A stretch of DNA of 64,000 nucleotides from positions 159,530 to 223,529 of the forward strand of contig JACJXS010000008.1 in assembly GCA_020636545.1 (NCBI GenBank), given 5' to 3'. Position numbers and translations under genes: made by a program. Positions within the stretch are counted from its first letter, which is position 1, and each line of letters starts with the position of its first letter. The notes under the pieces were generated by a model, which was given only the letters and a program-made list of their open reading frames with translations, had not been told where the DNA came from and did not search any database. The stretch comes from Chitinophagales bacterium. Its GTDB lineage: Bacteria > Bacteroidota > Bacteroidia > Chitinophagales > JADIYW01. Shown here one piece after another: positions 46,661 to 64,000 of this stretch.

Positions 46661-47911
46661 TTATCTGGTTTTAATAAAACTTTCGCTATCAATTAAATAT
46701 TGGGCGTTTGCAGCCACGGTATCATTTTTTGTAATGCCTTTTAAAATCTGTATATAATTATTGATTGTAATACCTGTATTTATTTCCCTTGCTTTAAATC
46801 CATTCTCCAGCTTTACAAATACCATTTTCTTAGTACCGATGCTCACCATTGCCTGCTTTGGCAACCAAAGGGCTTTCACCGGGTTTGCCCTGACAGTACC
46901 CTGTAAGCGCAAACCAACCGGCAGTTTCAGTTTACTATTGTTTAAATATACTCTTACTCTGAGGCTGTTTTCTGACTGATTTAACTGAGTTTCAATAAAA
47001 TCTATTTTTGCATATACCGGTTCTGAGTCGTTTATTTCAGTAGTAATAACCACTGTCTGATTGAGTTTGATTATACTTCCATAACCCTGCAATACATTGA
47101 AAACAGCCCAGACTTTATCCGTGTTCGATAATTTAAAAACCACGGCTCCTTTTTGAATATAATCACCTTCTTTTATTTTTAGTACATCTGTACTGCTAAC
47201 AGCATTTTGCATACTATTACTATTTACAGTTTCTGTCATTTTATCTGTACCCTGAATAATACCATAGGCAGGACTATAAATTGAAATAATAGGATTTGTC
47301 TTTTTTGTTTCATTGAGTGATTTTAACTGAGCATCCGTTATTCCATAGAGCATCAATTTTTGTTTGGAAGCAGCTATCAGTGATTCATTTTTAGCATCAT
47401 TCGTTATTAAATAAATATAATTCTGCTGTTCGGTGAGCAGTTCAGGGCTATATATATCAAATAGTTTCTGTCCTTTATTTACTTTTTGAAATTTATAATT
47501 TACGTACATCTTTTCAATCCTGCCACTCACTCTTGCTGCTATATTTACGATTGAATTTGGATTGTATTCTACAGTACCCGGTAAATATAGTTCTGTATTT
47601 ATTGAAGTGTCAAGAGGGGTTATCGTTTGATATTTACCCACAATGAAGTTGTCTGTGGGTTTAAGTAAGTTTTCAGATAGTGTTGTATCCACCTCCATAC
47701 TGTGGGTTTCCAGTTTAATTAATTTCATTCCGCAAATCGGGCAATTTCCCGGTTTATTTTTTCTGATTTCAGGATGCATTGAGCAAGTATAAACTTCCTT
47801 CTGATCATGGCTACCCATTATTTCATGCCGTTTCATCACCAAGAAATACACTCCGGCACCTATTGCAGAAATTAATAAAAGAATCAGACTATATTTTAGA
47901 AATTTTTTCAT
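46661..47911 (-). CDS. cusB: Second RND efflux periplasmic adaptor (CusB-like) with N-terminal heavy-metal-binding module
   Basis: 416 aa; YTCSMHPEIRKNKPGNCPICGMKL; paralogous to the downstream adaptor. Confidence 0.8.
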   Translation of the reverse strand: MKKFLKYSLILLLISAIGAGVYFLVMKRHEIMGSHDQKEVYTCSMHPEIRKNKPGNCPICGMKLIKLETHSMEVDTTLSENLLKPTDNFIVGKYQTITPLDTSINTELYLPGTVEYNPNSIVNIAARVSGRIEKMYVNYKFQKVNKGQKLFDIYSPELLTEQQNYIYLITNDAKNESLIAASKQKLMLYGITDAQLKSLNETKKTNPIISIYSPAYGIIQGTDKMTETVNSNSMQNAVSSTDVLKIKEGDYIQKGAVVFKLSNTDKVWAVFNVLQGYGSIIKLNQTVVITTEINDSEPVYAKIDFIETQLNQSENSLRVRVYLNNSKLKLPVGLRLQGTVRANPVKALWLPKQAMVSIGTKKMVFVKLENGFKAREINTGITINNYIQILKGITKNDTVAANAQYLIDSESFIKTR

Positions 47912-47913
47912 GC

Positions 47914-49170
47914 TTATTTGATTTCGAGTTGTTTTTCAATTTCCACCTGTGTTAAAAGAATAGCCTGTAATTTGTCCAATGCATCTATCTGTGCCATATT
48001 TAAGGCTTCCCATGCATCCAGTACCACAAATAAATCGCCTGTATTGTTTTGCCATGCAATTAAAGCTGTTTCATAATTTCTGCGTAATGCAGGAATTATG
48101 CTATTTTGTGTTATTTCGTACTGTTTATTCAGACTTATCAATTCGGTACTCATGCCTGAAATCATACCTGTGGCTTCATTTAGAATCATTTCTTTCTGCC
48201 ATTTTAAACTTTCATTCTTTAATAAATAACTACTGGCATTTGCCTTATACATTTTAGATGACCAGGGCATAAACGGCAAGTTTACCATCAGCATTGCTGA
48301 GAATTGCTGTGGCTGTTTGCCAAAGGCAAACATGTGTTCATACCGGAGACCAAATTCCGGTAATAATTTAGCCTTTTCCGCCTTTGCCTTGAGCTGATTT
48401 GTGGTAATAGATTTGTCGATAGCTTTAATTTCACTTCTATTTGCGGCAAGCTGTAAAGAATCCGTTTTTAGGTATTTGAGGTCATTCAAGTTATACGTTG
48501 TGTCAATGTCAAAATATAAATTTTTATCTCTTGCCATCAAGGTATTTATCATGATTCTTTTTTGAGTCACGTCATTTCGCAGCATGACAATCATATTCTG
48601 CAATTCACTGTATTGAGATTTTGCTTTGTAGTAAGTGGGCAGTTTATCCATATTGTACTGAAAACGAATTTCCATGCTTTTTATCATGTATTCCAGCAGC
48701 AATAAGTTATCTTCTGCGATTTTAATTTTTTTGTTTAAAACCAACCATTGATAATAATTAGATTTTGCCGCAGCATACAGCTGATTAATTGTGTAGTTCT
48801 TATTTTCTTTCTCTACGGCAGACATAGAACTCATATAGCTAAAATCCGCTTTGAGCTTTTTTGCATTGGGAAACATTTGGGTAACTCCTAACATATAGGA
48901 ACCCATGCCATCATTCATATCATCCGCTTTCCACATTTTAGCATTGTATGGTGTCATAAAGAAACCAGTATTTACCTGAGGAGGCATCCAGCTTTTTGCC
49001 CCTTTTGCCGCAGCATCCATGCTTTGTATATCTGCATCGTACATTTTGAGCTGCGGGTTATTCGCTTTTATAACTGCCAGCACTGAATCTAAATGAAGCA
49101 CCTGAGCCTTTAGGTTTGCAGTAATCAATATGCAACAACCAAGGATGAGAAAATATTTATTCTTTTGCAT
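47914..49170 (-). CDS. cusC: TolC-family outer-membrane efflux protein (CusC-like)
   Basis: 418 aa; signal peptide ..NLKAQ; helical-repeat OMF pattern; 14-nt overlap with the upstream cusA fragment. Confidence 0.8.
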   Translation of the reverse strand: MQKNKYFLILGCCILITANLKAQVLHLDSVLAVIKANNPQLKMYDADIQSMDAAAKGAKSWMPPQVNTGFFMTPYNAKMWKADDMNDGMGSYMLGVTQMFPNAKKLKADFSYMSSMSAVEKENKNYTINQLYAAAKSNYYQWLVLNKKIKIAEDNLLLLEYMIKSMEIRFQYNMDKLPTYYKAKSQYSELQNMIVMLRNDVTQKRIMINTLMARDKNLYFDIDTTYNLNDLKYLKTDSLQLAANRSEIKAIDKSITTNQLKAKAEKAKLLPEFGLRYEHMFAFGKQPQQFSAMLMVNLPFMPWSSKMYKANASSYLLKNESLKWQKEMILNEATGMISGMSTELISLNKQYEITQNSIIPALRRNYETALIAWQNNTGDLFVVLDAWEALNMAQIDALDKLQAILLTQVEIEKQLEIK

Positions 49171-51094
49171 CTATAATACTTATTTTACCTTTTGTTTTTA
49201 ATTCACGGAGTTTTACGATTTCAAATACTACCGGCGTAACCAATAGTACATAAATTGTGGATGTAATTGTACCGCCAATGAGCGGTACCGTAATAGGCAG
49301 CATAATATCTGAACCAGTGCCGGTAGCCCAAAGAATGGGCACTAATCCGAATAGGGAAACGGAAACTGTCATCAGTTTTGGCCTTAAACGTTTAGCAGAA
49401 CCATCGATAATAAATTGCCTTAAGATATCTTCGGTAATTACCTCTTTACTGTTGCCGTGTTTGGTTATCATCTTATTCATTGCCTCGTTCAAATAAATCG
49501 TCATTAACATGGCCGTCTCTATTGCCATACCGAACAATGCAATAAAACCAACAGCCACGGCAACAGATAAGTTAATACCATAAAAATATACCATAAAAAT
49601 TCCCCCGATAAGCGCAAACGGCACCGTTATCATAGTGATAATGGCTTCTTTCATGGAATGATATGTAAAAAACAGAATAAGGAAAATGATAAGCACCACT
49701 ATGGGCATTATCAGCTTCAATGTTTTGTTTGCTCTTAACTGGTTTTCCCATTGACCGCTCCATTCCACATAATATCCTTTTGGCATTTTAGCAATCAACT
49801 CATTTAATTTTTTCTGCGTATCTTTTACCGTACTTCCTAAATCACGCTCCCGGACATTAAATAAAACACTACCTCTCAGCATGGCATTTTCGCTGTTTAT
49901 CATCGGAGGACCATCGCTTATTTTTATATCAGCGACAGCTTCTAATGGAATGGGGCCAAACTGCATGGTTTGCACCTGTAATTTTTTTAATGCTTCGAGA
50001 CTGTTTCTGTATTCCTGCGCATATCTTGCATTTACTGAAAATCGCTGTCTGCCTTCGATGGTTGTGGTTAATTTCATTCCTCCAATAGCTGCTTCCACCA
50101 CGTTGTTTATATCGTCTATGGTTAATCCATATCTGCCAATCACCTCCCGTTTTGGCTGTATATCGATATATTTACCTCCGGTTATCGGTTCTGAATACAA
50201 ATCTTTTACACCATCCGTACCCTCCAATGCTTTTTTGATTTTTTGAGATAACACCTCTATGGTATCTAAGCTTTCCCCGTAAATTTTTATCCCGACATCT
50301 GTTCTTATACCCGTTGACAACATGTTAATCCGATTGATGATAGGTTGAGTAAAGCCATTGGTCACACCCGGAATTTGCAGCTTATTGTTGATTTCAGTTA
50401 TTATATCATTCTTAGTTAAGTTGCTTCGCCATTCGTTTTGGGGTTTTAGTAAAATGATTGTTTCTATCATACTCACCGGACTATTATCAGTGGCTGTATT
50501 CGCTCTCCCTGCCTTACCTAAAACATGGGCTACTTCCGGCACCGATTTTATCAATTTGTCCTGTACCTGTAATATTCGTTTCACTTCTGAATTTGATACA
50601 TCGGGCAAAGTAACGGGCATAAAGAGTATAGAACCTTCATCCAAAGGAGGCATAAATTCTGAACCCAAACGTGTATACATAAATACACCAACTAATAAGG
50701 CAATAATATTAACTGCTAAGACTGATTTTCGCCATTTTAAGCAAAACGTTAGTACAGGAGTGTATATTGATTCTAATTTTTTATTAATTGGATTCTTTTC
50801 TTCAGGACGCAGTTTGCCCTTTAGCAAGAAACTAATCAAAACAGGAGTTAGGGTAATGGCAAAGAACGCATCCACAATTAGTATAAATGACTTTGTGTAT
50901 GCCAGCGGACTAAATAATTTTCCTTCCATGCCTGTAAGCAGAAACACCGGTAAGAATGACGCTATTACAATAATGGTAGAATAGAATACACCAGGTCCCA
51001 CTAACTTTGAAGAAGCTTCAATTATCTTTAATTTTTCTTCATCAGAAACAGGGTCGTGTTCCTTTTTGAATAATTTTTTGATTTTATCTATCAT
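49157..51094 (-). CDS. cusA: CusA/CzcA-family RND pump, C-terminal fragment (TM5-TM12)
   Basis: 645 aa; aligns by eye to E. coli CusA from ..EVGPALF.. onward (..NRINMLSTGIRTDVGIK.., ..GPPMINSENAM..). Confidence 0.8.
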   Translation of the reverse strand: MIDKIKKLFKKEHDPVSDEEKLKIIEASSKLVGPGVFYSTIIVIASFLPVFLLTGMEGKLFSPLAYTKSFILIVDAFFAITLTPVLISFLLKGKLRPEEKNPINKKLESIYTPVLTFCLKWRKSVLAVNIIALLVGVFMYTRLGSEFMPPLDEGSILFMPVTLPDVSNSEVKRILQVQDKLIKSVPEVAHVLGKAGRANTATDNSPVSMIETIILLKPQNEWRSNLTKNDIITEINNKLQIPGVTNGFTQPIINRINMLSTGIRTDVGIKIYGESLDTIEVLSQKIKKALEGTDGVKDLYSEPITGGKYIDIQPKREVIGRYGLTIDDINNVVEAAIGGMKLTTTIEGRQRFSVNARYAQEYRNSLEALKKLQVQTMQFGPIPLEAVADIKISDGPPMINSENAMLRGSVLFNVRERDLGSTVKDTQKKLNELIAKMPKGYYVEWSGQWENQLRANKTLKLIMPIVVLIIFLILFFTYHSMKEAIITMITVPFALIGGIFMVYFYGINLSVAVAVGFIALFGMAIETAMLMTIYLNEAMNKMITKHGNSKEVITEDILRQFIIDGSAKRLRPKLMTVSVSLFGLVPILWATGTGSDIMLPITVPLIGGTITSTIYVLLVTPVVFEIVKLRELKTKGKISIIDAKE

Positions 51095-52394: not shown

Positions 52395-52859
52395 TTACTG
52401 ATTTGATGAGAGACTGTCTGTTGTTTTATTTGCCCAATTAATAATTGATAATTTATTTTTCTCTGTTAAAGCAGCATCCTTATGAAAAAGAGTGTAAGAA
52501 GGTAAAGGCATTTTATCATCCTGAATCTGACTGACCATAGATTTTAATTTACTTAATTGCCTTCTTCGAGAATATGCACCAAAATCACTAAAATTCAATT
52601 TATCTTTTCCATTCTTAACATGATTATTCAGCATCCAAGCAACAGGTTGAAAATTGGCGTAAAAAGGATAAATTGTATTGTTGCTGTGGCAATTGTAACA
52701 AGATATTTTTAATGCATCCAATACGCTGTCAGGCATATTGAATGTCATTGTTATATCTGTTAACAGTACCTGTTCGCTTTCGTTGCGAACAGGTCTGATA
52801 AATTGAATACCCACCACAATAATCAGCAACACTAACAATATCATTTTAATGATACGCAT
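52395..52859 (-). CDS. Membrane-anchored haem-binding-domain protein (CxxCH)
   Basis: 154 aa; N-terminal TM; CYNCHS motif; resembles the Haem_bd-type proteins often next to metal efflux genes. Confidence 0.55.
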   Translation of the reverse strand: MRIIKMILLVLLIIVVGIQFIRPVRNESEQVLLTDITMTFNMPDSVLDALKISCYNCHSNNTIYPFYANFQPVAWMLNNHVKNGKDKLNFSDFGAYSRRRQLSKLKSMVSQIQDDKMPLPSYTLFHKDAALTEKNKLSIINWANKTTDSLSSNQ

Positions 52860-52864
52860 AATGA

Positions 52865-53542
52865 TTATTTCAATTCTTCTTTAACAGAACCACAAGTTTG
52901 CATTGATTTTCCAAAATATGGATTTTTTATTTCCTTCGTTTCACTTAACCAAATTGCACCCTTGTTGTCGTTATACATTGGACAAAAATCTTTGTATAAA
53001 ATTTGACCTGCACCCAATGCTTTCACTAAATCGTACATATCTTTACTCAATAAATCAAAATGTTCTCTTTGATGTGCAATTTTACCTGCATTTGCACCAA
53101 TATGTTCTGCGTGTTCTCTTGCATCGCTTTCAATGTCTTCATACGTTTTCTTTTGTTCTGCTGTTAGTGCAGTCTTATCAAAACTTTTAAAGGCAGCTTC
53201 TAATGCTTTACCTGCTGTTGCTGCATCATCCGTATTGTCATTTGTCAACGCGTTTTTTAACTTTAAATAATTGCTTACTATCTCTTTGACCGCGATGGTT
53301 GCTTTTGTTTCTTCAGTTGCCTGAGTGGTCGTTGCATTCATATCTACCAGTACGGATAATTCCATGCCGCATTTAGAGCATTTATCGCCCTTGTTACCCA
53401 TCACTTCAGGATGCATAGGACATGCGTACATTACAGAAGAATTTTCTGCAGAGTTGCCTGCAGTTTCATTTGTCGTTTTATTATTACAAGCTGTAAATGC
53501 AATAAGGATTGCAAAACTTATAAGGATTAATTTTTTATTCAT
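52865..53542 (-). CDS. Lipoprotein with N-terminal heavy-metal-binding module and DUF3347-like helical domain
   Basis: 225 aa; lipobox AFTAC; YACPMHPEVMGNKGDKCSKCGMEL; helical C-domain. Confidence 0.6.
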   Translation of the reverse strand: MNKKLILISFAILIAFTACNNKTTNETAGNSAENSSVMYACPMHPEVMGNKGDKCSKCGMELSVLVDMNATTTQATEETKATIAVKEIVSNYLKLKNALTNDNTDDAATAGKALEAAFKSFDKTALTAEQKKTYEDIESDAREHAEHIGANAGKIAHQREHFDLLSKDMYDLVKALGAGQILYKDFCPMYNDNKGAIWLSETKEIKNPYFGKSMQTCGSVKEELK

Positions 53543-54502: not shown

Positions 54503-55228
54503 CTATTTTACCAGTTTTAGTGCTTCATTTAATCTCTGTGCAACATTATCCCAGTTTATAATATTAAATAGTGCATCTACAAAGTCTGTGCGCTTATTTT
54601 TGTATTTTAAATAGTAAGCGTGTTCCCAAACATCGATTACTAATATGGGAACTGCTCCCCATTGTATTAATTTCTCGTGATTTTCACATTGTAGAATTGT
54701 AAGACTGTTTCTATATGGTTGGTACGCTAAGATTCCCCAGCCATTGCCATCTACATTTTTAGACGTTTCGGCAATAAGAACTTTTAACCTGTCGTAACTA
54801 CCAAAATCTTTTTCTATGAATTTTAAAAGTTCGCCTTTTGGTTGTGTTTGCTTGTTTGTTAGGTTTGTCCAAAATATGGAATGTAAGATGTGTGATGATG
54901 AATGATAAGAAAGTTTCTTTGTCCAAAAATCAACTATTTCTATATTATTGTCATCCAATACTTTTTTTATCATCGATAAATCCTTATTTGCACCTTTTAC
55001 CGCACCACCATGATGAAATGTATAATGCAGGTGTAAGGTTTCAGCATCCATATATGGCTCTAAAAAAGTTTCATTGTATGGTAATGGTTGTTGAATAAAA
55101 TTACCATTAGCATCAGCTAATTTATCAATATTATTGTTGGTCAAATTTTGTGCAAATGCATTATTTGAACTAACAATAGCAGCAGCACCCAGTAATGCTC
55201 CTGATTTTAAAAAATCTTTTCTGTTCAT
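54503..55228 (-). CDS. Fe/Mn-family superoxide dismutase with Tat-like signal peptide (ChrC-like context)
   Basis: 241 aa; MNRKDFLKSGALLGAAAIVSSNNAFA; ..HHTFHHG.., ..DVWEHAYY.. ligand motifs. Confidence 0.85.
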   Translation of the reverse strand: MNRKDFLKSGALLGAAAIVSSNNAFAQNLTNNNIDKLADANGNFIQQPLPYNETFLEPYMDAETLHLHYTFHHGGAVKGANKDLSMIKKVLDDNNIEIVDFWTKKLSYHSSSHILHSIFWTNLTNKQTQPKGELLKFIEKDFGSYDRLKVLIAETSKNVDGNGWGILAYQPYRNSLTILQCENHEKLIQWGAVPILVIDVWEHAYYLKYKNKRTDFVDALFNIINWDNVAQRLNEALKLVK

Positions 55229-55929: not shown

Positions 55930-57126
55930 TTATGTAATTGATTTTATTGCCAACCCTAATATAGCAGCGACAAGTATTATATATGGTTCTTGAATTTTCT
56001 TAATATAAATCAGAGCGAGTATTGTAGCGATTGCAATAAGTGCAGTTATTATATCCGTGATACTACGCATACCTATTATAACAACAGCACCTACTAAAGC
56101 ACCTATAACAGTTGCAGTAATCCCTTCAACAAATGCCTTAATTGATTTATTATTGCCGTATTTTTTAAAGTATGGTGCAGGTATCACGGTAAATAAATAA
56201 CACGGTAGAAATGTTGCTAAGGCTGCAACGCTTGCACCTGCAAAGCCATTTACCAAATAACCGATAAAACCAACTGTAATAACAACCGGACCAGGGGTAA
56301 TCATGGCAACCGCAACAGCATCTACAAATTGTTTTTCATTAAGCCAATGATATTCTGTTACAACACCACTATGTAAAAACGGTACAATAGCCAAACCACT
56401 ACCAAATACAAATGCACCCGCTTTAGTAAAAAATAATGCTATTTTTCCAAGTGTTCCTATATCATATTGCCAAAACCCAATACCTGCCAAAATAACCATG
56501 TTTGTTGTCTTAGGTTTTTGTATCCACGCGGGAGGTGCTTTAACAATCATGTAAATTAATCCGGTTGCAATAAATAATAGAACACTTTCTGATTGAGTAA
56601 TAATTGTAACAATAGCAGCAATAATATAGAATATCCATAACAGCCAATTTTGCTTTATGGATGGTATATTTATTTTACCTACTGACTTAGTAGTAAGTTT
56701 ATAACTACTCATCACTATAATTCCAATAACTGCTGCACCAACACCATAAAAAACCGCTTGCATCCATGATAATCCACCGTATAATTTATAAGCAATACCT
56801 AAAGCAACTACCATAATAAAAGATGGTATTACAAACGCAATTCCGCATAATGTTGCTCCTAAAATACCATAGTGAACATAGCCTAAATATATGCCTAATT
56901 GTGCGGCTAAGGGACCCGGTGCAAGTTGCGCAAGCGCTAATCCTTCTTTATATTCTTCTTCTGAAATCCATTGTTTCTGTTCCACTAAATCACGGTGCAT
57001 ATATCCAACAAGCGCAACAGGACCGCCAAAGCCTGAATAGCCAAGTTTTAAGAAATATAAAATAAGTTGCCGTAACGTATAATGTTGTTTTAATTCTTCT
57101 GTCATATTTTTAAATTTTGATTCCAA
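55930..57126 (-). CDS. chrA: Chromate ion transporter (CHR family, two-domain long form)
   Basis: 398 aa; ..FLKLGYSGFGGPVA.. and a duplicated CHR-domain pattern. Confidence 0.9.
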   Translation of the reverse strand: MESKFKNMTEELKQHYTLRQLILYFLKLGYSGFGGPVALVGYMHRDLVEQKQWISEEEYKEGLALAQLAPGPLAAQLGIYLGYVHYGILGATLCGIAFVIPSFIMVVALGIAYKLYGGLSWMQAVFYGVGAAVIGIIVMSSYKLTTKSVGKINIPSIKQNWLLWIFYIIAAIVTIITQSESVLLFIATGLIYMIVKAPPAWIQKPKTTNMVILAGIGFWQYDIGTLGKIALFFTKAGAFVFGSGLAIVPFLHSGVVTEYHWLNEKQFVDAVAVAMITPGPVVITVGFIGYLVNGFAGASVAALATFLPCYLFTVIPAPYFKKYGNNKSIKAFVEGITATVIGALVGAVVIIGMRSITDIITALIAIATILALIYIKKIQEPYIILVAAILGLAIKSIT

Positions 57127-57560
57127 TTGTGTTTTTCATCTGAAACATATTTTGCCCAACTATAGAGCGCATCGTATATTTTCATTCCTATCTCTAATAG
57201 TTCAAAATCATCCTTGAAATTATAAGAGAGCCCCGCTGATATTGCCCATAATCCTGCCGATTGTTTGGCTATATCAAATCGGTCAGTATCAGCACCGCGA
57301 ACTATAACGGCTATTTGCAATAATGCAGCGTCTGTAATGTTATGTTTTTTAATGATGGTATCGAAAGTGCAAAATTCTCCATCATGTGTATATTCTACTC
57401 CGGGAATATCATAAGGAATAGCATCTGCTTTTTTTGCCTTTTCCAGAACCTGATTTGCAGGGACATATAAAAACTCTGCTTCTTTATCAACAAAGTTTTT
57501 GATTAACCAAGGGCAGGCTATTCTATCAATCTTTGGCTTTTCTCTGGTTATCCAACGCAT
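57102..57560 (-). CDS. ChrB C-terminal-domain (chromate resistance) protein
   Basis: 152 aa; MRWITREKPKIDRIACPWLIKNFVD..; 25-nt overlap with chrA. Confidence 0.7.
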   Translation of the reverse strand: MRWITREKPKIDRIACPWLIKNFVDKEAEFLYVPANQVLEKAKKADAIPYDIPGVEYTHDGEFCTFDTIIKKHNITDAALLQIAVIVRGADTDRFDIAKQSAGLWAISAGLSYNFKDDFELLEIGMKIYDALYSWAKYVSDEKHNWNQNLKI

Positions 57561-57634
57561 ATTATATTTTACGCTGGAAAATTAGTGTAGTTTACCAAAA
57601 TGAAATAGAACAGATTTAACCTTTTGTATTTTTT

Positions 57635-58480
57635 TTACCTTTTAGGTGGATTTTTTTGATAGATAGAAGGATTCTTACCTGTGTGTTTTTTGAAAATCCT
57701 ATTAAAATGACTTTGGTCTGAAAAACCTGTTAGAAATGCAATTTCTGAAAGCGAATACTTTGATTGTTCCATAAGCTGAATGGCTTTCTCAATACGGAGT
57801 TTCCGGATATATTCACCAAATGACAAATCATCAAAGTATTTTGAAAATTCTCTTGAAACATAGGAAGGATGAATGCTCAATCCTTTTGATACTTCCTTTA
57901 AACTTAAACTAAGATTCGTATCTATTTGATCCTGGATAATCTCTTTTAATTCTTTTGCCCAGACAGGTGTCTTTCTTCCTGTGCCTGGTTTTTGTTTTAA
58001 AAATTTATTATACACATCCATCAATAAATGTTCAATAGGATTTTGTGTGTGCTTTTCCTTTTGCAAATATTTTGCCCATGTATAAAGTGCGTCATACACT
58101 TCCATGCCTTTTTCAAGCAATTGATAATCGTCTGTAATGTTACGAGAAAGACCTGCTGAAATCGCCCATAATCCCGAAGCCTGTGATGCAATATCATGCC
58201 GATCTGTATCAGCACCTCTTACAATGATTGCCATTGTGTGTATAGCCGGGTCTTTTATCTTGTATTTTTTTACAAAGTAATCAAAAGTACAATTATCTCC
58301 ATAATGTGTAAATTCAACATCCGGCACATCAAACGGAGTTGCATTGAATTTTTTTGCTTTTGTTTTTACATCATCAAAAGGAGCGTATATAATCTCGGCA
58401 TCTTTATCAATAAATCTTTTTATAAGCCAGGGACATGCTATACGGTCAATCTTTGGTCGTTCTCTTGTTATCCATTTCAT
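57635..58480 (-). CDS. ChrB-domain / AraC-type HTH fusion protein (putative chromate-responsive regulator)
   Basis: 281 aa; the N-terminal ~145 aa is paralogous to the 57102-57560 product; C-terminal ..LSEIAFLTGFSDQSHFNRIFKKHTG.. AraC HTH. Confidence 0.75.
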   Translation of the reverse strand: MKWITRERPKIDRIACPWLIKRFIDKDAEIIYAPFDDVKTKAKKFNATPFDVPDVEFTHYGDNCTFDYFVKKYKIKDPAIHTMAIIVRGADTDRHDIASQASGLWAISAGLSRNITDDYQLLEKGMEVYDALYTWAKYLQKEKHTQNPIEHLLMDVYNKFLKQKPGTGRKTPVWAKELKEIIQDQIDTNLSLSLKEVSKGLSIHPSYVSREFSKYFDDLSFGEYIRKLRIEKAIQLMEQSKYSLSEIAFLTGFSDQSHFNRIFKKHTGKNPSIYQKNPPKR

Positions 58481-58522: not shown

Positions 58523-59683
58523 TTACTCATCATCTGTGTTTTTCATTTTCATTAATAATGAGTATGCACCTTTTGTTACTATATTTTTATCAATAATGTC
58601 ATCTGTTGAAATGATTTCTGTATACCCATTTTCGCTATTGCCAATAGTTACTTCTTTCATTTCATATTGCTTGTTACCATTCTCAATAAAGACATAATCC
58701 TTATTTTCAAATTTTACTATTGCATCGGATTGTATAGCGTTTGAAGTATTGTTGTTCAGGTCAATTACCGCATTCATATACATACCCGGCAATAATGCTT
58801 TGTCGTAATTTTCAAAATGACAATGTACTTCTGTGCTATGGTTTTCTGTAAAATCTTTACCTATTAAAATAATCTTACAGAGATATTTCTTGTTTGGATT
58901 GGTATTGGTGTAAGCCGACAAAGATTGTCCAATAGATAACTTGTTTATGTCTTTCTCAAAAATAGTGAGCGCTAAATGTATGTCGGCAGGATTTATGATT
59001 TCAAACAATATATCACTTGGATTTACATACTTGCCGATGTTTACATTTATTTTAGAAACATAACCGCTGATAGGGGAATAGATATTGATACTTTTAGAGA
59101 TTTTATTAGCCGATACATTATCGGGATTGATACCGGCAAATCTTAATTTCTCTGCATACGATTGTAATAAAACCGTTAGTGAGTTGTATTCCGTTTGTGC
59201 CTGCTGATATACTTTGTCGCTACTGGATTTTGTCTGGTTCAATTCTTTTTGCCTTTCGTATTCTGATTTTGCATATTCAATTTTGGCTTTCACCATTAAA
59301 TAATCTTCCTGCAGTTGTATGTATTGTTTGTCTTCCACAACGCATAATGCTTGTCCTTTCGCAACAAACATGCCTTCCAATAAATTAGTTGACTTAAGAT
59401 ATCCGCCCATCGGTACACTAATGGAAACGAGGTTTTGCGGCGGGACGTCTATTTTCCCATTTACTTTTATGGTAGATGAGATCTGTCGCTTTTCAATCTT
59501 TCCAAGCTGTATGCCTGCGTTTTTTATCTGTGCGTCTGTGAGTGTGGTGCTGATTTCTGACATTGTTTTCCCTTCAGCCTCTTCTTTTACTTCTTTATTC
59601 TTACAGCCCGGCAGCGCCAATAATAAACATGTAATGCCAAGTATATTGAGCATGCTTTTGGTATGATTTATTGTTTTTCTCAT
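58523..59683 (-). CDS. RND efflux periplasmic adaptor lipoprotein (CzcB-like, no N-terminal metal module)
   Basis: 386 aa; lipobox ALPGC; adaptor-type lipoyl/beta-barrel pattern. Confidence 0.8.
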   Translation of the reverse strand: MRKTINHTKSMLNILGITCLLLALPGCKNKEVKEEAEGKTMSEISTTLTDAQIKNAGIQLGKIEKRQISSTIKVNGKIDVPPQNLVSISVPMGGYLKSTNLLEGMFVAKGQALCVVEDKQYIQLQEDYLMVKAKIEYAKSEYERQKELNQTKSSSDKVYQQAQTEYNSLTVLLQSYAEKLRFAGINPDNVSANKISKSINIYSPISGYVSKINVNIGKYVNPSDILFEIINPADIHLALTIFEKDINKLSIGQSLSAYTNTNPNKKYLCKIILIGKDFTENHSTEVHCHFENYDKALLPGMYMNAVIDLNNNTSNAIQSDAIVKFENKDYVFIENGNKQYEMKEVTIGNSENGYTEIISTDDIIDKNIVTKGAYSLLMKMKNTDDE

Positions 59684-59693
59684 TTTGTTGATT

Positions 59694-59921
59694 TTATTTT
59701 TTATTAAGTATTTTGTTCTCTTTCTTTTGTTTTAATTTTTTATCTACTTCGTCATGGTTTTGATAAAGCCTGGAGAATCCAAATTTTTTACCTAATCCAG
59801 TGTAATCTTTTCCATAGCGTTCAGGCAGATAGGCGACAAATATGATGAAAATGGTTACTATAAAAGCTGCAATTGAGAGGCTTTTAATCTGTTGTGATGT
59901 TAAGTTTTGTTGTGGTTTCAT
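59694..59921 (-). CDS. Small single-TM protein
   Basis: 75 aa; one TM helix, basic C-terminal tail. Confidence 0.35.
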   Translation of the reverse strand: MKPQQNLTSQQIKSLSIAAFIVTIFIIFVAYLPERYGKDYTGLGKKFGFSRLYQNHDEVDKKLKQKKENKILNKK

Positions 59922-59931
59922 GATTTATTAT

Positions 59932-60621
59932 TTATGAGTTAAAGAAGCCTTTTAATTGAAAAATCATTAACGCAAATCCTGCGACCATAAGCGCAATATT
60001 TGTTACCGTTGAAAATTGTTTAAAAGACTGATAATTTCTCCAAATGCTGATTATAATCAGTATATATAATAATGCAACGAATTGACCTATTTCTACACCG
60101 ATATTAAAACCTATCAGGTTAGTTATCAAACCTTGTTTACTGAAGTTAAATTCCTGCAGTTTGGTTGCCAATCCTAATCCATGAAAAAGACCAAATGTCA
60201 ATACCGCTAACCTGTTATTCGGCTGCACATTGAAATATTTAAAACCACCCAAATTATCAAATCCTTTATAGATAACGGATATGGCTATTATTGCATCTAT
60301 TATATAAGCATTGACTTGCAGGTTAAGAATAACACCTGATAACAATGTAATACTGTGACCGATAGTAAACATACTCACATAAAGTAAAATGTCTTTTGGT
60401 TTATATAAGAAAAATATGATACCCACTAAAAATAACAGATGGTCGTAACCGGTAAGCATGTGTTTCGCCCCTATGTACAAAAACGGTACAAATGCCGAAC
60501 CATTATTGTCCATTAAAAATACTCTTGTTTTGTCATCTACCCCATGTGCAAATGCACCAGAGCAGATGCAAAGCAACATTAAGGTTGTACCTAAAACGGT
60601 TATTCTTTTTTTTGTTTTCAT
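59932..60621 (-). CDS. HupE/UreJ-family (Ni/Co-associated) membrane protein
   Basis: 229 aa; signal peptide then ..HMLTGYDHLLFLVGIIF.. motif. Confidence 0.75.
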   Translation of the reverse strand: MKTKKRITVLGTTLMLLCICSGAFAHGVDDKTRVFLMDNNGSAFVPFLYIGAKHMLTGYDHLLFLVGIIFFLYKPKDILLYVSMFTIGHSITLLSGVILNLQVNAYIIDAIIAISVIYKGFDNLGGFKYFNVQPNNRLAVLTFGLFHGLGLATKLQEFNFSKQGLITNLIGFNIGVEIGQFVALLYILIIISIWRNYQSFKQFSTVTNIALMVAGFALMIFQLKGFFNS

Positions 60622-60631
60622 TCTAAATTTT

Positions 60632-61885
60632 TTACCGGTTAATTAATTTTTCATTCATATTTAACGAGGGCCTGAAAATAAGTATTGCTATAAGACCTAA
60701 AGCCATAGTTGCAATACCACCGTACAGGAAATCTGCTTTCGGAAAATTAGTTCCTAAATACCCTGCAATTGGATAAGCAATCGCCCACCAGAGATGTGAA
60801 AATGCAAAGTGAGAACCATATACCTTACCCTGATTATCTGATTCAATGTTTTCTGCTATTAAGGTTTCAGATGGCATTTCTGCAAGACTTTGGCCTAAAC
60901 CTGCGAACAACCAAAATACAATAAGGGCTGTATAAGGAACATAGTTAGCAAAACTTATTGAAACGCCTAACAATAAAGCACCGCTTACCAGTGATATGCT
61001 TCTGGTTTTAGTTTTATCCAAACTGCCTAAAAGAAATGCTGCAACCGCTGCACCAATACCAAATGCAGCCATTAACCAACCATAGTATTTATCGCTTAAT
61101 AATAAGTTGTTTTTTACATGGCTGATACTATTTACTAATATACATGCTCCGGCAATGGCTGAAATAAATTCAATACTCAGAGCAAAGCGAAGTGTCTTAT
61201 TCCCGAACAAAAATTTGATGCCATTTATTACATCATTCCAAGTTGTTTTTGAATCCTGGGCTTCCAACGAAACGCCTTTTTGCAACTCCGCACCCGGTAT
61301 TGAAAGAATTAACATAGCAGCTATTATAAACGACAGACCATCTAAAAAGAAAATGTCCCGTGCGCCGAACCAGACAGCTATGATTCCAGCAAATCCAGGT
61401 CCTAATATTCCTAATATCTGGAATGTTGCAGTAGATAAACCGACTGCTTCACGGAAATATTTACCTTCTATTATTTGAGGAATGATAGCACGATAAGTTG
61501 GCGTAAAAAAAGCATTAAATACATTTAGCAAAAACACCAGCAAATAGATATGCCACTTAGCCGTAATAAATGGCAGACAGCATATAATAGCCATTCTGAT
61601 AAAATGAGTCATATACAATATCTTTTTTCTGTCCACTTTGTCAGCTAACACTCCTGCAAAAGGCGAGAAGATGATAAATGCAGTTACTCTCAATGTTAGT
61701 GCCGTCGCTAAAATCTTTGATGAGTTTTCTTTGTCTATCTGGTATGCCAACAATGCCAATCCAACCCACGAAATCGCATCGCCTAACAAACTAATGGTTT
61801 GTGATACATATAGCTTTGCAAAGGTTTTATTCTCTAATGCTTTGAATGGCTCAATAAATATTTGTTTCACTTTGTCTTTCAGCAT
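60632..61885 (-). CDS. MFS transporter
   Basis: 417 aa; 12-TM pattern; ..GVLADKVDRKKIL.. loop motif. Confidence 0.8.
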   Translation of the reverse strand: MLKDKVKQIFIEPFKALENKTFAKLYVSQTISLLGDAISWVGLALLAYQIDKENSSKILATALTLRVTAFIIFSPFAGVLADKVDRKKILYMTHFIRMAIICCLPFITAKWHIYLLVFLLNVFNAFFTPTYRAIIPQIIEGKYFREAVGLSTATFQILGILGPGFAGIIAVWFGARDIFFLDGLSFIIAAMLILSIPGAELQKGVSLEAQDSKTTWNDVINGIKFLFGNKTLRFALSIEFISAIAGACILVNSISHVKNNLLLSDKYYGWLMAAFGIGAAVAAFLLGSLDKTKTRSISLVSGALLLGVSISFANYVPYTALIVFWLFAGLGQSLAEMPSETLIAENIESDNQGKVYGSHFAFSHLWWAIAYPIAGYLGTNFPKADFLYGGIATMALGLIAILIFRPSLNMNEKLINR

Positions 61886-61891
61886 AAAGGA

Positions 61892-64000
61892 TCATTTATT
61901 GACCAAAGAATTAATTTCTTCAATAGTATCATTCAATTGCCTTACCGTTTCCATGTAATTACTTTGAATTTCTGTAGCCTGATTGATAAGCATTACCCAT
62001 TCTATATAATTGATGTTTCCATTATCAAACTGTTTGTTGGCCGTTGATGTGATAACATCAGCATCCTTTAAAACAACATTTTCATAGTACAAGACTTTCT
62101 GACTGTATTTTTGATATTGGCTTAACAATAACCTGTACTTAGTATTGAGGTATTGTTTTTCCATCTCCACTTTATTCAATGTAATCTTGTTAGCGAATGT
62201 GTAGGCATTTATCTTATGCTTTAATGAAGAATTAAATAAAGGAATAGAAAAACCAAACTGACCATAAGTGCCTAAGTTATTAGATTTGAACGCTGTATTA
62301 TTGCGGAATGTCTGTACATATACACCACCGATCAGGTCTGGTAATCTTTTTGATTTTTCCAATACTATTCTGGCGTTGTTTATATTGATTTCATGCTCTA
62401 AGAGTTTTACCGCCGGCTGTAATGCTATAAAACCCGTATCAATATTGCTGTCAAAATTTAATTTAAAATTTTGTGCCGAAGGTGTATAACTTGTGTCGGT
62501 GTTTAATAAGTAATCAAATTGAATCTGCAAGGACTTGTAATCTGTTTGTAAATCTTTGAGTTGTATCTTGATTTGACCTGACTGCATTTCGGCTGTTGTT
62601 TTTTCCAAGATATTAGATTCGCCTTTTTCAAAACGAAGCGTTGATTTATTTAGAAATTCATTATATAGAGAATCAGTTCTTAATAATAGTTTTTCTTTTT
62701 CTTTCAGGTAAAGCATTTGATAAAATGCAGTTGTTACCTGCTTTTTCAACTCTCTTTTTTGTAATGCCTCATTCCATTCACCCACTTTAGATTCTTCTGT
62801 CAGCAGTTGTTTTTGTTTCCTGTAAACAGAAGGGAATTTAATGCTTTGCGAGATGCCGATTTTTCCATCAAAATAATTAGTGTTGAACTGACCAAATTCC
62901 GTACTGATATCTGTATTGGGAATGTCGTAAGCGGTTTTAGTGAGCATTTTCAGATACTCAGATTTAAGCTGCTCATTCTTTGTTTTCAGATTGTTGGCAG
63001 CAGCAATTTCTATCGCTTTATCTAAGGTGATTTTTTCCTGTGCTTCTGCATGTTGCCATGAGAGTACTGTAAAACCAATAACGACTAAGGTGGAGATACC
63101 GGTTTTGTCCTTACCCTTTATCTTAATTCCTTTTTCAAAGATTACATACAATACCGGTAACACAAACAGGGTAAGGAATGTTGCGATTAGTAAACCACCA
63201 ATTACAACAGTAGCTAATGGCCGTTGCACTTCTGCGCCATTGCCATTGCTTATCGCCATAGGTAAAAATCCTAATGAAGCAACAAAAGCTGTCATCAATA
63301 CCGGTCTCAATCTTATTTTAGTTCCTTTTAAAACAATTTGAATTAAGTCTGTTTCCCCAGAACCTTTTAACCGGTTAAATTCAGAAATCAGTACAATTCC
63401 ATTTAATACAGATACACCGAATAAAGCAATAAAACCGATGCCTGCGCTGATGCTAAACGGCATTCCGCGCAATGCTAAAAACAAAATCCCCCCAATGGCT
63501 GACATTGGAATGGCTGAATAAATCAATAAACCTTGTTTAATCGAACCAAACGCAAAGAAGAGCAATAAGAAGATCAATAATAAAGAAAGCGGGACGGCTA
63601 AAGACAGACGTTTTTTTGCTGCCACTAAATTTTCAAAAGCACCGCCATAACTTACATAATACCCAGCAGGCAACTTCAGCTTTTTTTCAACCTGCAACTG
63701 CAAATCTTTTACAATGGTCTGCACATCCCTGTCACGAACATTAAAACCGACAATAATCCTTCGCCTTGCATCTTCACGCTGAATCTGATTTACGCTTTCC
63801 TGAATAGAAACATCCGCAATGGAACTCAACTGAATTTGTGTACCCATCGGAGTAGGAATTAACAGATTCTGTACATCTTCTAAGTTTTGCCGTTTTTCCC
63901 CGGCAAGGCGCACGACTAAATCGAATCGTTTTTCATCTTCAAAGACCAACCCACTGCTTTGCCCTGCAAATGCCGTGTTTACAACTTCGTTGATGTCCCG
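61892..64000 (-). CDS. Partial CDS: C-terminal part of a CzcA/CusA-family RND pump fused in frame to a TolC-like outer-membrane-factor domain
   Basis: Frame is open to the window edge (the track Met at 63949 is internal). RND TM8-12 (..GFIALFGVSVLNGIVLISEF..) is followed by a signal-like segment and an OMF-type sequence (EKITLDKAIEIAAANNL..). Confidence 0.8.
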   Translation of the reverse strand, partial: RDINEVVNTAFAGQSSGLVFEDEKRFDLVVRLAGEKRQNLEDVQNLLIPTPMGTQIQLSSIADVSIQESVNQIQREDARRRIIVGFNVRDRDVQTIVKDLQLQVEKKLKLPAGYYVSYGGAFENLVAAKKRLSLAVPLSLLLIFLLLFFAFGSIKQGLLIYSAIPMSAIGGILFLALRGMPFSISAGIGFIALFGVSVLNGIVLISEFNRLKGSGETDLIQIVLKGTKIRLRPVLMTAFVASLGFLPMAISNGNGAEVQRPLATVVIGGLLIATFLTLFVLPVLYVIFEKGIKIKGKDKTGISTLVVIGFTVLSWQHAEAQEKITLDKAIEIAAANNLKTKNEQLKSEYLKMLTKTAYDIPNTDISTEFGQFNTNYFDGKIGISQSIKFPSVYRKQKQLLTEESKVGEWNEALQKRELKKQVTTAFYQMLYLKEKEKLLLRTDSLYNEFLNKSTLRFEKGESNILEKTTAEMQSGQIKIQLKDLQTDYKSLQIQFDYLLNTDTSYTPSAQNFKLNFDSNIDTGFIALQPAVKLLEHEININNARIVLEKSKRLPDLIGGVYVQTFRNNTAFKSNNLGTYGQFGFSIPLFNSSLKHKINAYTFANKITLNKVEMEKQYLNTKYRLLLSQYQKYSQKVLYYENVVLKDADVITSTANKQFDNGNINYIEWVMLINQATEIQSNYMETVRQLNDTIEEINSLVNK

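Follow-up and report, generated by a model that had tools for sequence, protein, structure and literature searches.

In the textbook view a tripartite efflux pump is encoded by three genes, and it is still debated how the components of the two membranes come together in the right ratio. The described systems closest to the locus reported here are CzcCBA, ZneCAB and CusCBA of Proteobacteria, which combine a resistance-nodulation-division (RND) permease, an outer-membrane factor (OMF) of the SilC/CusC/TolC fold and a CzcB-type periplasmic adaptor. The same three parts were found in a 64,000 nt stretch of DNA from a Chitinophagales bacterium (assembly GCA_020636545.1, contig JACJXS010000008.1, positions 159,530 to 223,529; hereafter the window), where they presumably likewise use protons to drive divalent metals out through both membranes, but in this system the RND permease and the OMF are encoded in one frame, with a predicted internal signal peptide between them. 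Judged from sequence comparison, we consider it likely that this gene specifies one precursor (a 'polyprotein') of two components of a tripartite heavy-metal pump, which would be cut by signal peptidase I (SPI) between residues A320 and Q321 of the part encoded in the window.

One open reading frame for permease and outer-membrane factor

On the minus strand of the window, a single frame is open from 64000 to 61895 (702 sense codons, with the stop codon at 61892-61894), and since it is not closed at the window edge at 64000, the N-terminal ~750 residues of the RND part lie beyond the window, along with most of the positions relevant to metal substrate and proton relay. The encoded residues comprise the last 288 of the permease, a 32-residue linker and a 382-residue TolC-type OMF. 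A preliminary description of this DNA, which mentioned neither the strand nor the truncation of the RND part by the window edge, had claimed an in-frame RND-OMF fusion, and this was borne out by a Pfam match to ACR_tran (residues 2-288, profile positions 734-1020 of 1021, E 2e-88), followed in the same frame by two stretches matching Pfam OEP (PF02321; 99.3 bits against a cut-off of 22, E 3e-28). The last ~290 RND residues, which are all that the window contains, matched the NCBIfam model TIGR00914 (CusA/CzcA) at profile positions 745-1037 with 343.7 bits (E 2e-102), where the curated cut-off of 701.45 bits applies to the whole protein, and the closest solved RND structure was ZneA (4k0e, residues 728-1017 of 1045, E 1.6e-65), with CusA also among the nearest. 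The matches to both the Pfam profile and ZneA run to the end of transmembrane (TM) helix 12, where the RND fold ends, and the C-terminus that follows TM12 is cytoplasmic in the solved structures of CusA, ZneA and AcrB. Translation of the junction gave LPVLYVIFEKG-IKIKGKDKTG-ISTLVVIGFTVL-SWQHAEA↓QEKITLDKAIE (the arrow marks the predicted cut, A320↓Q321, between 63041 and 63040), letter for letter as it had been quoted. It includes the extra hydrophobic segment that had been noted after the cytoplasmic end of TM12, as well as an AxA-type site (A-E-A↓Q) directly before the start of the mature OMF, the downstream part aligning with the mature N-termini of free-standing OMFs.

Over its full length the OMF part can be aligned with free-standing OMFs of 400-440 aa, and an AlphaFold2 model of residues 285-702 (mean pLDDT 86.9) represents it as a complete TolC-type protomer. 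In the numbering of the model, a short strand (38-40) and a helix are located at the equatorial belt, and helices 42-72 lead up to the first beta-hairpin. The beta-hairpin strands occupy positions 79-103 and 271-301 and the four long helices positions 106-174, 180-215, 307-375 and 381-416, with the first pair of helices running 69 residues down and 36 back up, and this unit is repeated once (271-416), as in the canonical OMF protomer fold. For the linker and the hydrophobic segment (model positions 1-36), the prediction is of low confidence (pLDDT 40-67) and shows no packing against the OMF. A Foldseek search with the model retrieved TOprJ1, SilC, CusC, TolC, CmeC, OprM, OprN, VceC and MtrE (E 1e-16 to 1e-13, TM-score ~0.7). 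It was the fold search alone that placed the OMF part among solved structures, as phmmer with this part detected no solved OMF among the PDB sequences and a profile search against the PDB was swamped by RND matches; no OMF model of NCBIfam matched it in a scan of that collection.

An indel introduced during sequencing or assembly of an A-rich tract might have fused two ordinary genes, and in an unfused relative (locus L082, discussed below) the RND stop and the OMF start do overlap in an A-rich run, a kind of sequence prone to indel errors. The region 62700-63500 was, however, matched with 0 mismatches and 0 gaps by contigs of four public runs from three studies of activated sludge and wastewater, which were assembled independently and of which one contig has a depth of 108. 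Three of these contigs cover the entire region, and in the fourth run two pieces together cover all of it but 41 bases inside TM12 (63216-63256). The read-through, which the preliminary description had wanted confirmed, is identical in these independent contigs, with no stop or frameshift at the junction. Since the same uninterrupted ORF is also present in most of 80 loci from different species, we exclude a sequencing or assembly error, the chance of which appears negligible.

These 80 loci, obtained in a scan of one genome per species, share 46-76% identity with the window and nearly all align straight across the junction. Most of these Bacteroidota genome loci have an uninterrupted ORF of 1443-1501 aa, and the earlier supposition that CzcA-type annotations of ~1400 aa exist in this phylum agrees with ORFs of ~1450 aa being common there. 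In the full-length relatives L001 (76% identical) and L077 (Chryseobacterium shigense), a complete RND permease (TIGR00914, 1155.7 and 1142.2 bits respectively, profile 1-1036/1044) is followed by two OEP repeats. The carriers belong to the Sphingobacteriales, Chitinophagaceae, Saprospiraceae, Flavobacteriales, Cytophagales and Ignavibacteria/Kapaibacteria, and two metagenome-assembled genomes with fusion loci carry the labels Comamonas and Limnohabitans, possibly through faulty binning. Among the cultured carriers are Chryseobacterium shigense DSM 17126 (L077) and Emticicia aquatica CECT 8858 (L031). Both Pfam domains are present in nearly all of the best 120 matches in the protein database, and nearly all bear the name 'CusA/CzcA family heavy metal efflux RND transporter'. 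Two loci with shorter ORFs (L048 and L078), probably due to frameshifts in long-read assemblies, were excluded from the alignments. A seemingly separate 'half-RND + OMF' gene type, suggested by a clustering of database lengths at ~928, 949 and 970 aa among the proteins P0001-P0120, was rejected, as these entries are gene calls from conserved internal Met residues of the RND part, mostly in truncated ORFs. One protein, P0084 (950 aa, from a complete Mucilaginibacter genome), is an exception to this account in that it begins inside the end of TM6, and may represent a frameshifted or split gene.

The linker as a predicted internal signal peptide

An alignment of 75 sequences across the junction showed a column identity of 0.92 in TM12, 0.33 in the linker and 0.66 in the first 30 residues of the mature OMF. 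Within this variable linker the positions around the predicted cut are constrained, with Gln at +1 in all 75 sequences, Ala at -1 in 70 (Gly in four and Ser in one), and at -3 mostly Ala (31) or Ser (20), followed by Thr (8), Ile (8), Val (5), Gly (2) and Leu (1). The net charge before the hydrophobic core is positive (median +3), and the best 12-residue Kyte-Doolittle mean of the window segment is 2.45. In fused linkers the hydrophobic run has a median length of 13-14 residues and the c-region one of 4-5, compared with 12 and 5 for the N-terminal signal peptides found in 70 free-standing homologues. Taking a positive n-region, an h-region of ~7-15 residues and a polar c-region as the hallmarks of a Sec/SPI signal peptide, the linker displays this n-h-c architecture together with small residues at -1 and -3; it departs from a classical signal peptide in its location, which is not N-terminal but after ~1040 residues and 12 TM helices. 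The combination of a variable core and a constrained -3/-1 site is the signature of an SPI substrate, and by these measures the linker is indistinguishable from the authentic signal peptides of its relatives, and shorter than a typical membrane anchor.

In Bacteroidetes, most SPI substrates obey a Q-rule, in which cleavage exposes a Gln that is then cyclised to pyroglutamate (PMC5837995; PMC10653852), and the Gln found at +1 throughout the fused sequences, and at the signal boundary in 68 of the 70 free homologues, conforms to this rule. Neither a Cys nor a lipobox is present at the junction, indicating that the OMF is not a lipoprotein, and assignment to the NodT-type lipoprotein OMFs (the class of CusC and OprM) was rejected for this reason and for the invariant +1 Gln. 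The same features exclude signal peptidase II, which leaves a rhomboid protease or periplasmic trimming among the ways in which the chain could be processed at another site or by another protease. The exact site is a prediction, and in a few relatives another A-Q pair occurs some residues from it, but both the -3/-1 rule and the Q-rule hold at the position homologous to the cleavage site of the free homologues, and we regard processing of this other kind as unlikely.

The free-standing homologues come from an exhaustive HMMER search in which the mature OMF part served as the query. It yielded 150 cluster representatives, which were sorted by the sequence upstream of the homologous start. Seventy were free-standing (~400-440 aa, with their own Met and presequence) and at least 39 were fused to an RND TM12, with the remainder being fragments or unclassifiable. 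The presequence of 68 of these 70 has [AGSC]↓Q as its end, either exactly at the counterpart of A320↓Q321 or a few residues from it. The closest free relative of the OMF part of the window is the OMF of L081 (56% identity), and in this and the other unfused loci (L082, L084/L085 and L086) the genes are arranged in the order RND, OMF, adaptor. A PDDEXK_3 gene is located between RND and OMF in L081 (3253-3829), and a 48-aa ORF in L084/L085 (L084 4825-5001). In L082 (3080-3130), the RND end (...IEKGFKNEKNKK, then the stop codon) and the OMF start (MKKIKNKKQVSILTF...) overlap by 20 nt in an A-rich tract, which is likely to be a hot spot for indels. An indel of 1-2 bases in this overlap would give a linker of the fused type, consisting of the EKGFK tail of the RND permease and a Lys-rich n-region, and the Lys-rich composition of the linker indeed corresponds to the RND tail plus signal n-region of L082. 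The fusion most likely arose repeatedly from RND-OMF-adaptor, the usual gene order in Bacteroidota, where the RND stop and the OMF start overlap and a small indel would remove the stop codon.

Fused and free forms were thoroughly interleaved when 182 OMF parts were placed in a rough neighbour-joining tree. The Fitch minimum of 38 changes is an over-estimate of unknown size due to tree error and possibly mis-called genes, but the mixing itself holds, as among the nearest neighbours of the window sequence are the fused L001 and L029 as well as the free P0121. Frequent switching of this kind would imply that the two forms are functionally equivalent, and hence that the fused chain must be cut.

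A Met codon is present in the Lys/Arg-rich part of the linker in ~26 of the 80 fused relatives (for example ...FESKNMKKIAVV...), and since Bacteroidota initiate translation without a strong Shine-Dalgarno sequence, the OMF might instead be translated separately from an internal start in the linker, in which case the locus would consist of two overlapping genes with the fused chain as a by-product. In the window, the linker from TM12 to the cleavage site contains no in-frame ATG, GTG or TTG, and the OMF thus lacks a start codon of its own, which excludes separate translation for this gene. A suitably placed ATG is also missing in most relatives, the RND frame has no stop codon so that the fused chain would be made regardless, and the retained Met codons are better read as plausible relics of the ancestral OMF start. 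Separate translation is in our view very unlikely as a general explanation, and could at most operate on the side in the minority of relatives with a retained Met codon.

The preliminary description had left a choice between a thirteenth TM helix or internal anchor and release by signal peptidase, and took an unusual assembly route into account. Without cleavage, the segment would form a permanent thirteenth TM helix that tethers the OMF-like part to the inner membrane, where it would be inactive or have a role other than that of a channel. With the hydropathy given above, the segment is hydrophobic enough to span the membrane, and cleavage itself is deduced by comparison. The geometry argues against such a tether, as the mature N-terminus lies at the equatorial belt in the model, with only ~7 residues between the core and Q321. 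In assembled AcrAB-TolC and MexAB-OprM, as seen by cryo-EM, the equatorial belt is >100 Å away from the inner membrane, and with this spacing a tethered OMF would be unable to reach the outer membrane. Furthermore, the OMF is conserved as a complete protomer in an operon without another OMF, the core has the length of a signal peptide and not that of a TM helix, a tether leaves the conservation at -3, -1 and +1 unexplained, and the frequent switching with unfused forms implies equivalence. A permanent anchor is improbable on these grounds, and the comparative evidence (the conserved -3, -1 and +1 positions, the variable core of ~13 residues and the interconversion of fused and free forms) favours a cleaved signal peptide, with which an unusual assembly route is not needed.

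For the precursor cleaved by SPI, we infer the translocation of the OMF, the cut and its exact site, the fate of the thirteenth helix, the formation of pyroglutamate and the metal specificity of the pump, as set out in the following model of heavy-metal export. The RND part would enter the inner membrane during its translation and end, after TM12, on the cytoplasmic side, and the next ~32 residues would act as an internal Sec signal peptide. Its Lys-rich stretch would remain cytoplasmic, and its ~12-residue core would span the membrane N-in/C-out and initiate translocation of the 382-residue OMF, which should be no harder than translocation of the two ~300-residue periplasmic loops of the RND permease. 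SPI would then cleave at A-E-A↓Q, whereby the permease would retain the signal segment as a thirteenth, C-terminal helix and the OMF would be freed to the periplasm, where its N-terminal Gln would probably be converted to pyroglutamate, a cyclisation that other SPI substrates of Bacteroidetes also undergo. The OMF would trimerise, reach the outer membrane by the usual route and form a normal 3:6:3 pump with the downstream CzcB-type adaptor, and the fusion would guarantee 1:1 synthesis of permease and OMF. As a more speculative and rather doubtful extension, the RND trimer could serve as an assembly platform that holds three nascent OMF chains side by side and allows them to pre-trimerise before or during release, with the thirteenth helix as a functional part of the permease. 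If so, a single precursor would give rise in cis to the inner- and outer-membrane parts of a machine that spans the envelope.

Several points weigh against cleavage as proposed here. All the evidence on cleavage is comparative, and the signal-peptide call is based on simple statistics of run length, charge and c-region. Cutting by SPI after 12 preceding TM helices is unusual, and OMF function, rather than processing, may account for part of the conservation of the +1 Gln. In addition to the over-estimated number of changes in the tree, some of the database entries counted as 'free-standing' may be products of faulty gene calling or of frameshifts.

Genomic context of the fusion gene

A homologue of the CzcB-type adaptor is the next gene in 65 of the 80 loci and is located 0.3-2.6 kb further downstream in nine, with too little sequence available for the other six; the fusion is thus accompanied by its cognate adaptor, as expected for a tripartite RND system. 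Another OMF gene was found within 8 kb in one of the 80 loci, where it is part of a separate system. Fusion and adaptor together provide exactly the three parts of a tripartite pump, with the fused OMF being the sole OMF supplied. In the window, three genes intervene between the fusion and the adaptor (Table 1), which are probably cargo and not pump components; among the 80 loci, intervening genes of the HupE or MFS type were seen only in the close relatives L001, L025 and L078, with at least one in each.

The same island contains a CusA split over two genes, as had been pointed out before, with the stop codon of the first and the start codon of the second overlapping in the sequence ATGA (51091-51094). 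Contigs of four independent runs agree exactly at this junction, and the split is thus present in the DNA and not an error of assembly. The OMF of this second system is free-standing, begins with MQKNKYFLILGCCILITANLKA↓QVLHLDSVLAVIKANN and represents a free counterpart of the fused OMF within the window. The second system also has the RND-OMF-adaptor order, the arrangement from which a fusion can arise. Its tandem adaptors and the other genes of the metal-resistance island, including a chromate module, are listed in Table 1.

Table 1. Positions of the fusion gene, its parts and the surrounding metal-resistance genes in the 64,000 nt window
Feature	Position	Strand	Evidence or remarks
C-terminal 288 residues of the RND permease, CzcA/ZneA type (heavy metal), to the end of TM12	63137..64000	-	Pfam, NCBIfam and ZneA matches
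Whole linker, E289-A320	63041-63136	-	
Lys-rich cytoplasmic linker, E289-G301 (EKGIKIKGKDKTG)	63098..63136	-	Predicted n-region of internal signal peptide
Hydrophobic segment, I302-L313 (ISTLVVIGFTVL)	63062..63097	-	Predicted h-region; '13th TM', N-in/C-out
Segment S314-A320 (SWQHAEA)	63041..63061	-	Predicted c-region, with predicted signal peptidase I site A-E-A↓Q
Mature OMF, Q321-K702, 382 aa	61895..63040	-	Modelled as complete TolC/CusC-type protomer
MFS antiporter	60632-61885	-	Pfam MFS_1; between fusion gene and adaptor
HupE/UreJ protein	59932-60621	-	Pfam HupE_UreJ_2; between fusion gene and adaptor
75-aa ORF	59694-59921	-	No family match; between fusion gene and adaptor
CzcB-type periplasmic adaptor (membrane fusion protein)	58523..59683	-	HlyD_D23, E 3.7e-29; TIGR01730, TIGR00999
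ChrB_C fused to AraC-type HTH regulator	57635-58480	-	Chromate module (55930-58480)
Stand-alone ChrB_C protein	57102-57560	-	Chromate module
ChrA transporter	55930-57126	-	Chromate module
Fe/Mn superoxide dismutase	54503-55228	-	N-terminal extension of ~45 residues
DUF3347 protein	52865-53542	-	HMBD motif
Haem_bd domain protein	52395-52859	-	
Split second CusA-type RND, part 1, 430 aa	51091-52383	-	ACR_tran profile 2-418
Split second CusA-type RND, part 2, 645 aa	49157-51094	-	ACR_tran profile 417-1020
Free-standing OMF of second RND system	47914-49170	-	Overlaps RND stop by 14 nt; signal ending ...NLKA↓Q
Tandem adaptor, first	46661-47911	-	N-terminal HMBD heavy-metal-binding motif; 32-nt overlap with the next
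Tandem adaptor, second	45436-46692	-	N-terminal HMBD heavy-metal-binding motif
P1B-type ATPase	42879-45419	-	HMBD and HMA domains; after the tandem adaptors

Comparison with known systems

Throughout much of Bacteroidota, the two membrane components of a large natural family of pumps appear to be made as one chain and then separated at an internal export signal, and the accepted working of these pumps is unchanged by the fusion. If the cleavage proposed here is correct, the family would be a rare natural bacterial case of SPI cutting after a 12-helix membrane protein, as well as a natural experiment on the 1:1 coupling of pump and channel synthesis. It would also require a correction of annotation, as the ~1450-aa 'CusA/CzcA' entries hide an OMF that is missed in surveys of OMFs or of complete efflux systems. 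The sequences are abundant in databases under this name, and the fusion is apparently unstudied: full-text literature searches, with most subscription journals and TCDB outside their coverage, gave no description of a natural RND-OMF fusion (the fused proteins they turned up were reporter constructs or membrane-fusion proteins), and the searchable text of two reviews (PMC8277102; PMC4446572) does not mention one. Papers on Riemerella anatipestifer describe B739_RS03800/03805 as RND components, which possibly form a two-gene pump.

When compared with CzcCBA, ZneCAB and CusCBA, the window system differs in the order of its parts, which is A-C-B and not C-B-A. Its OMF has a Gln at +1 and is not a lipoprotein, whereas CusC and OprM are lipoproteins with a +1 Cys, and it is very divergent, resembling solved OMFs by fold only. 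The free-standing Bacteroidota homologues (L081, L082, L084/L085 and L086) are closer, as they have an OMF of the same subfamily (at most 56% identity), the same type of RND permease, the same order and the same A↓Q signal end. They differ in the presence of an RND stop codon and of a separate Met for the OMF, with a 4-20 nt overlap or a small inserted ORF between the two genes.

For the mechanism, the nearest analogue, and the only natural bacterial precedent known to us, may be the Bradyrhizobium japonicum cytochrome b/c1 precursor FbcH (Thony-Meyer et al.), which reportedly has an internal signal peptide and yields two subunits on cleavage. As is said of FbcH, the window protein would join a polytopic inner-membrane protein via an internal signal peptide to a periplasm-facing partner in the same complex. 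The analogy is one of mechanism only, as the families are unrelated and both products of FbcH are said to remain in the inner membrane, whereas the OMF part of the window protein would go to the outer membrane. Other components of one machine that are made as one chain include SecDF of Thermus and fused dimeric adaptors such as DSY0927 (reviewed in PMC8277102 and PMC4446572). In those fusions the joined parts belong to the same compartment and stay joined, while the fusion in the window links parts that belong to different membranes.

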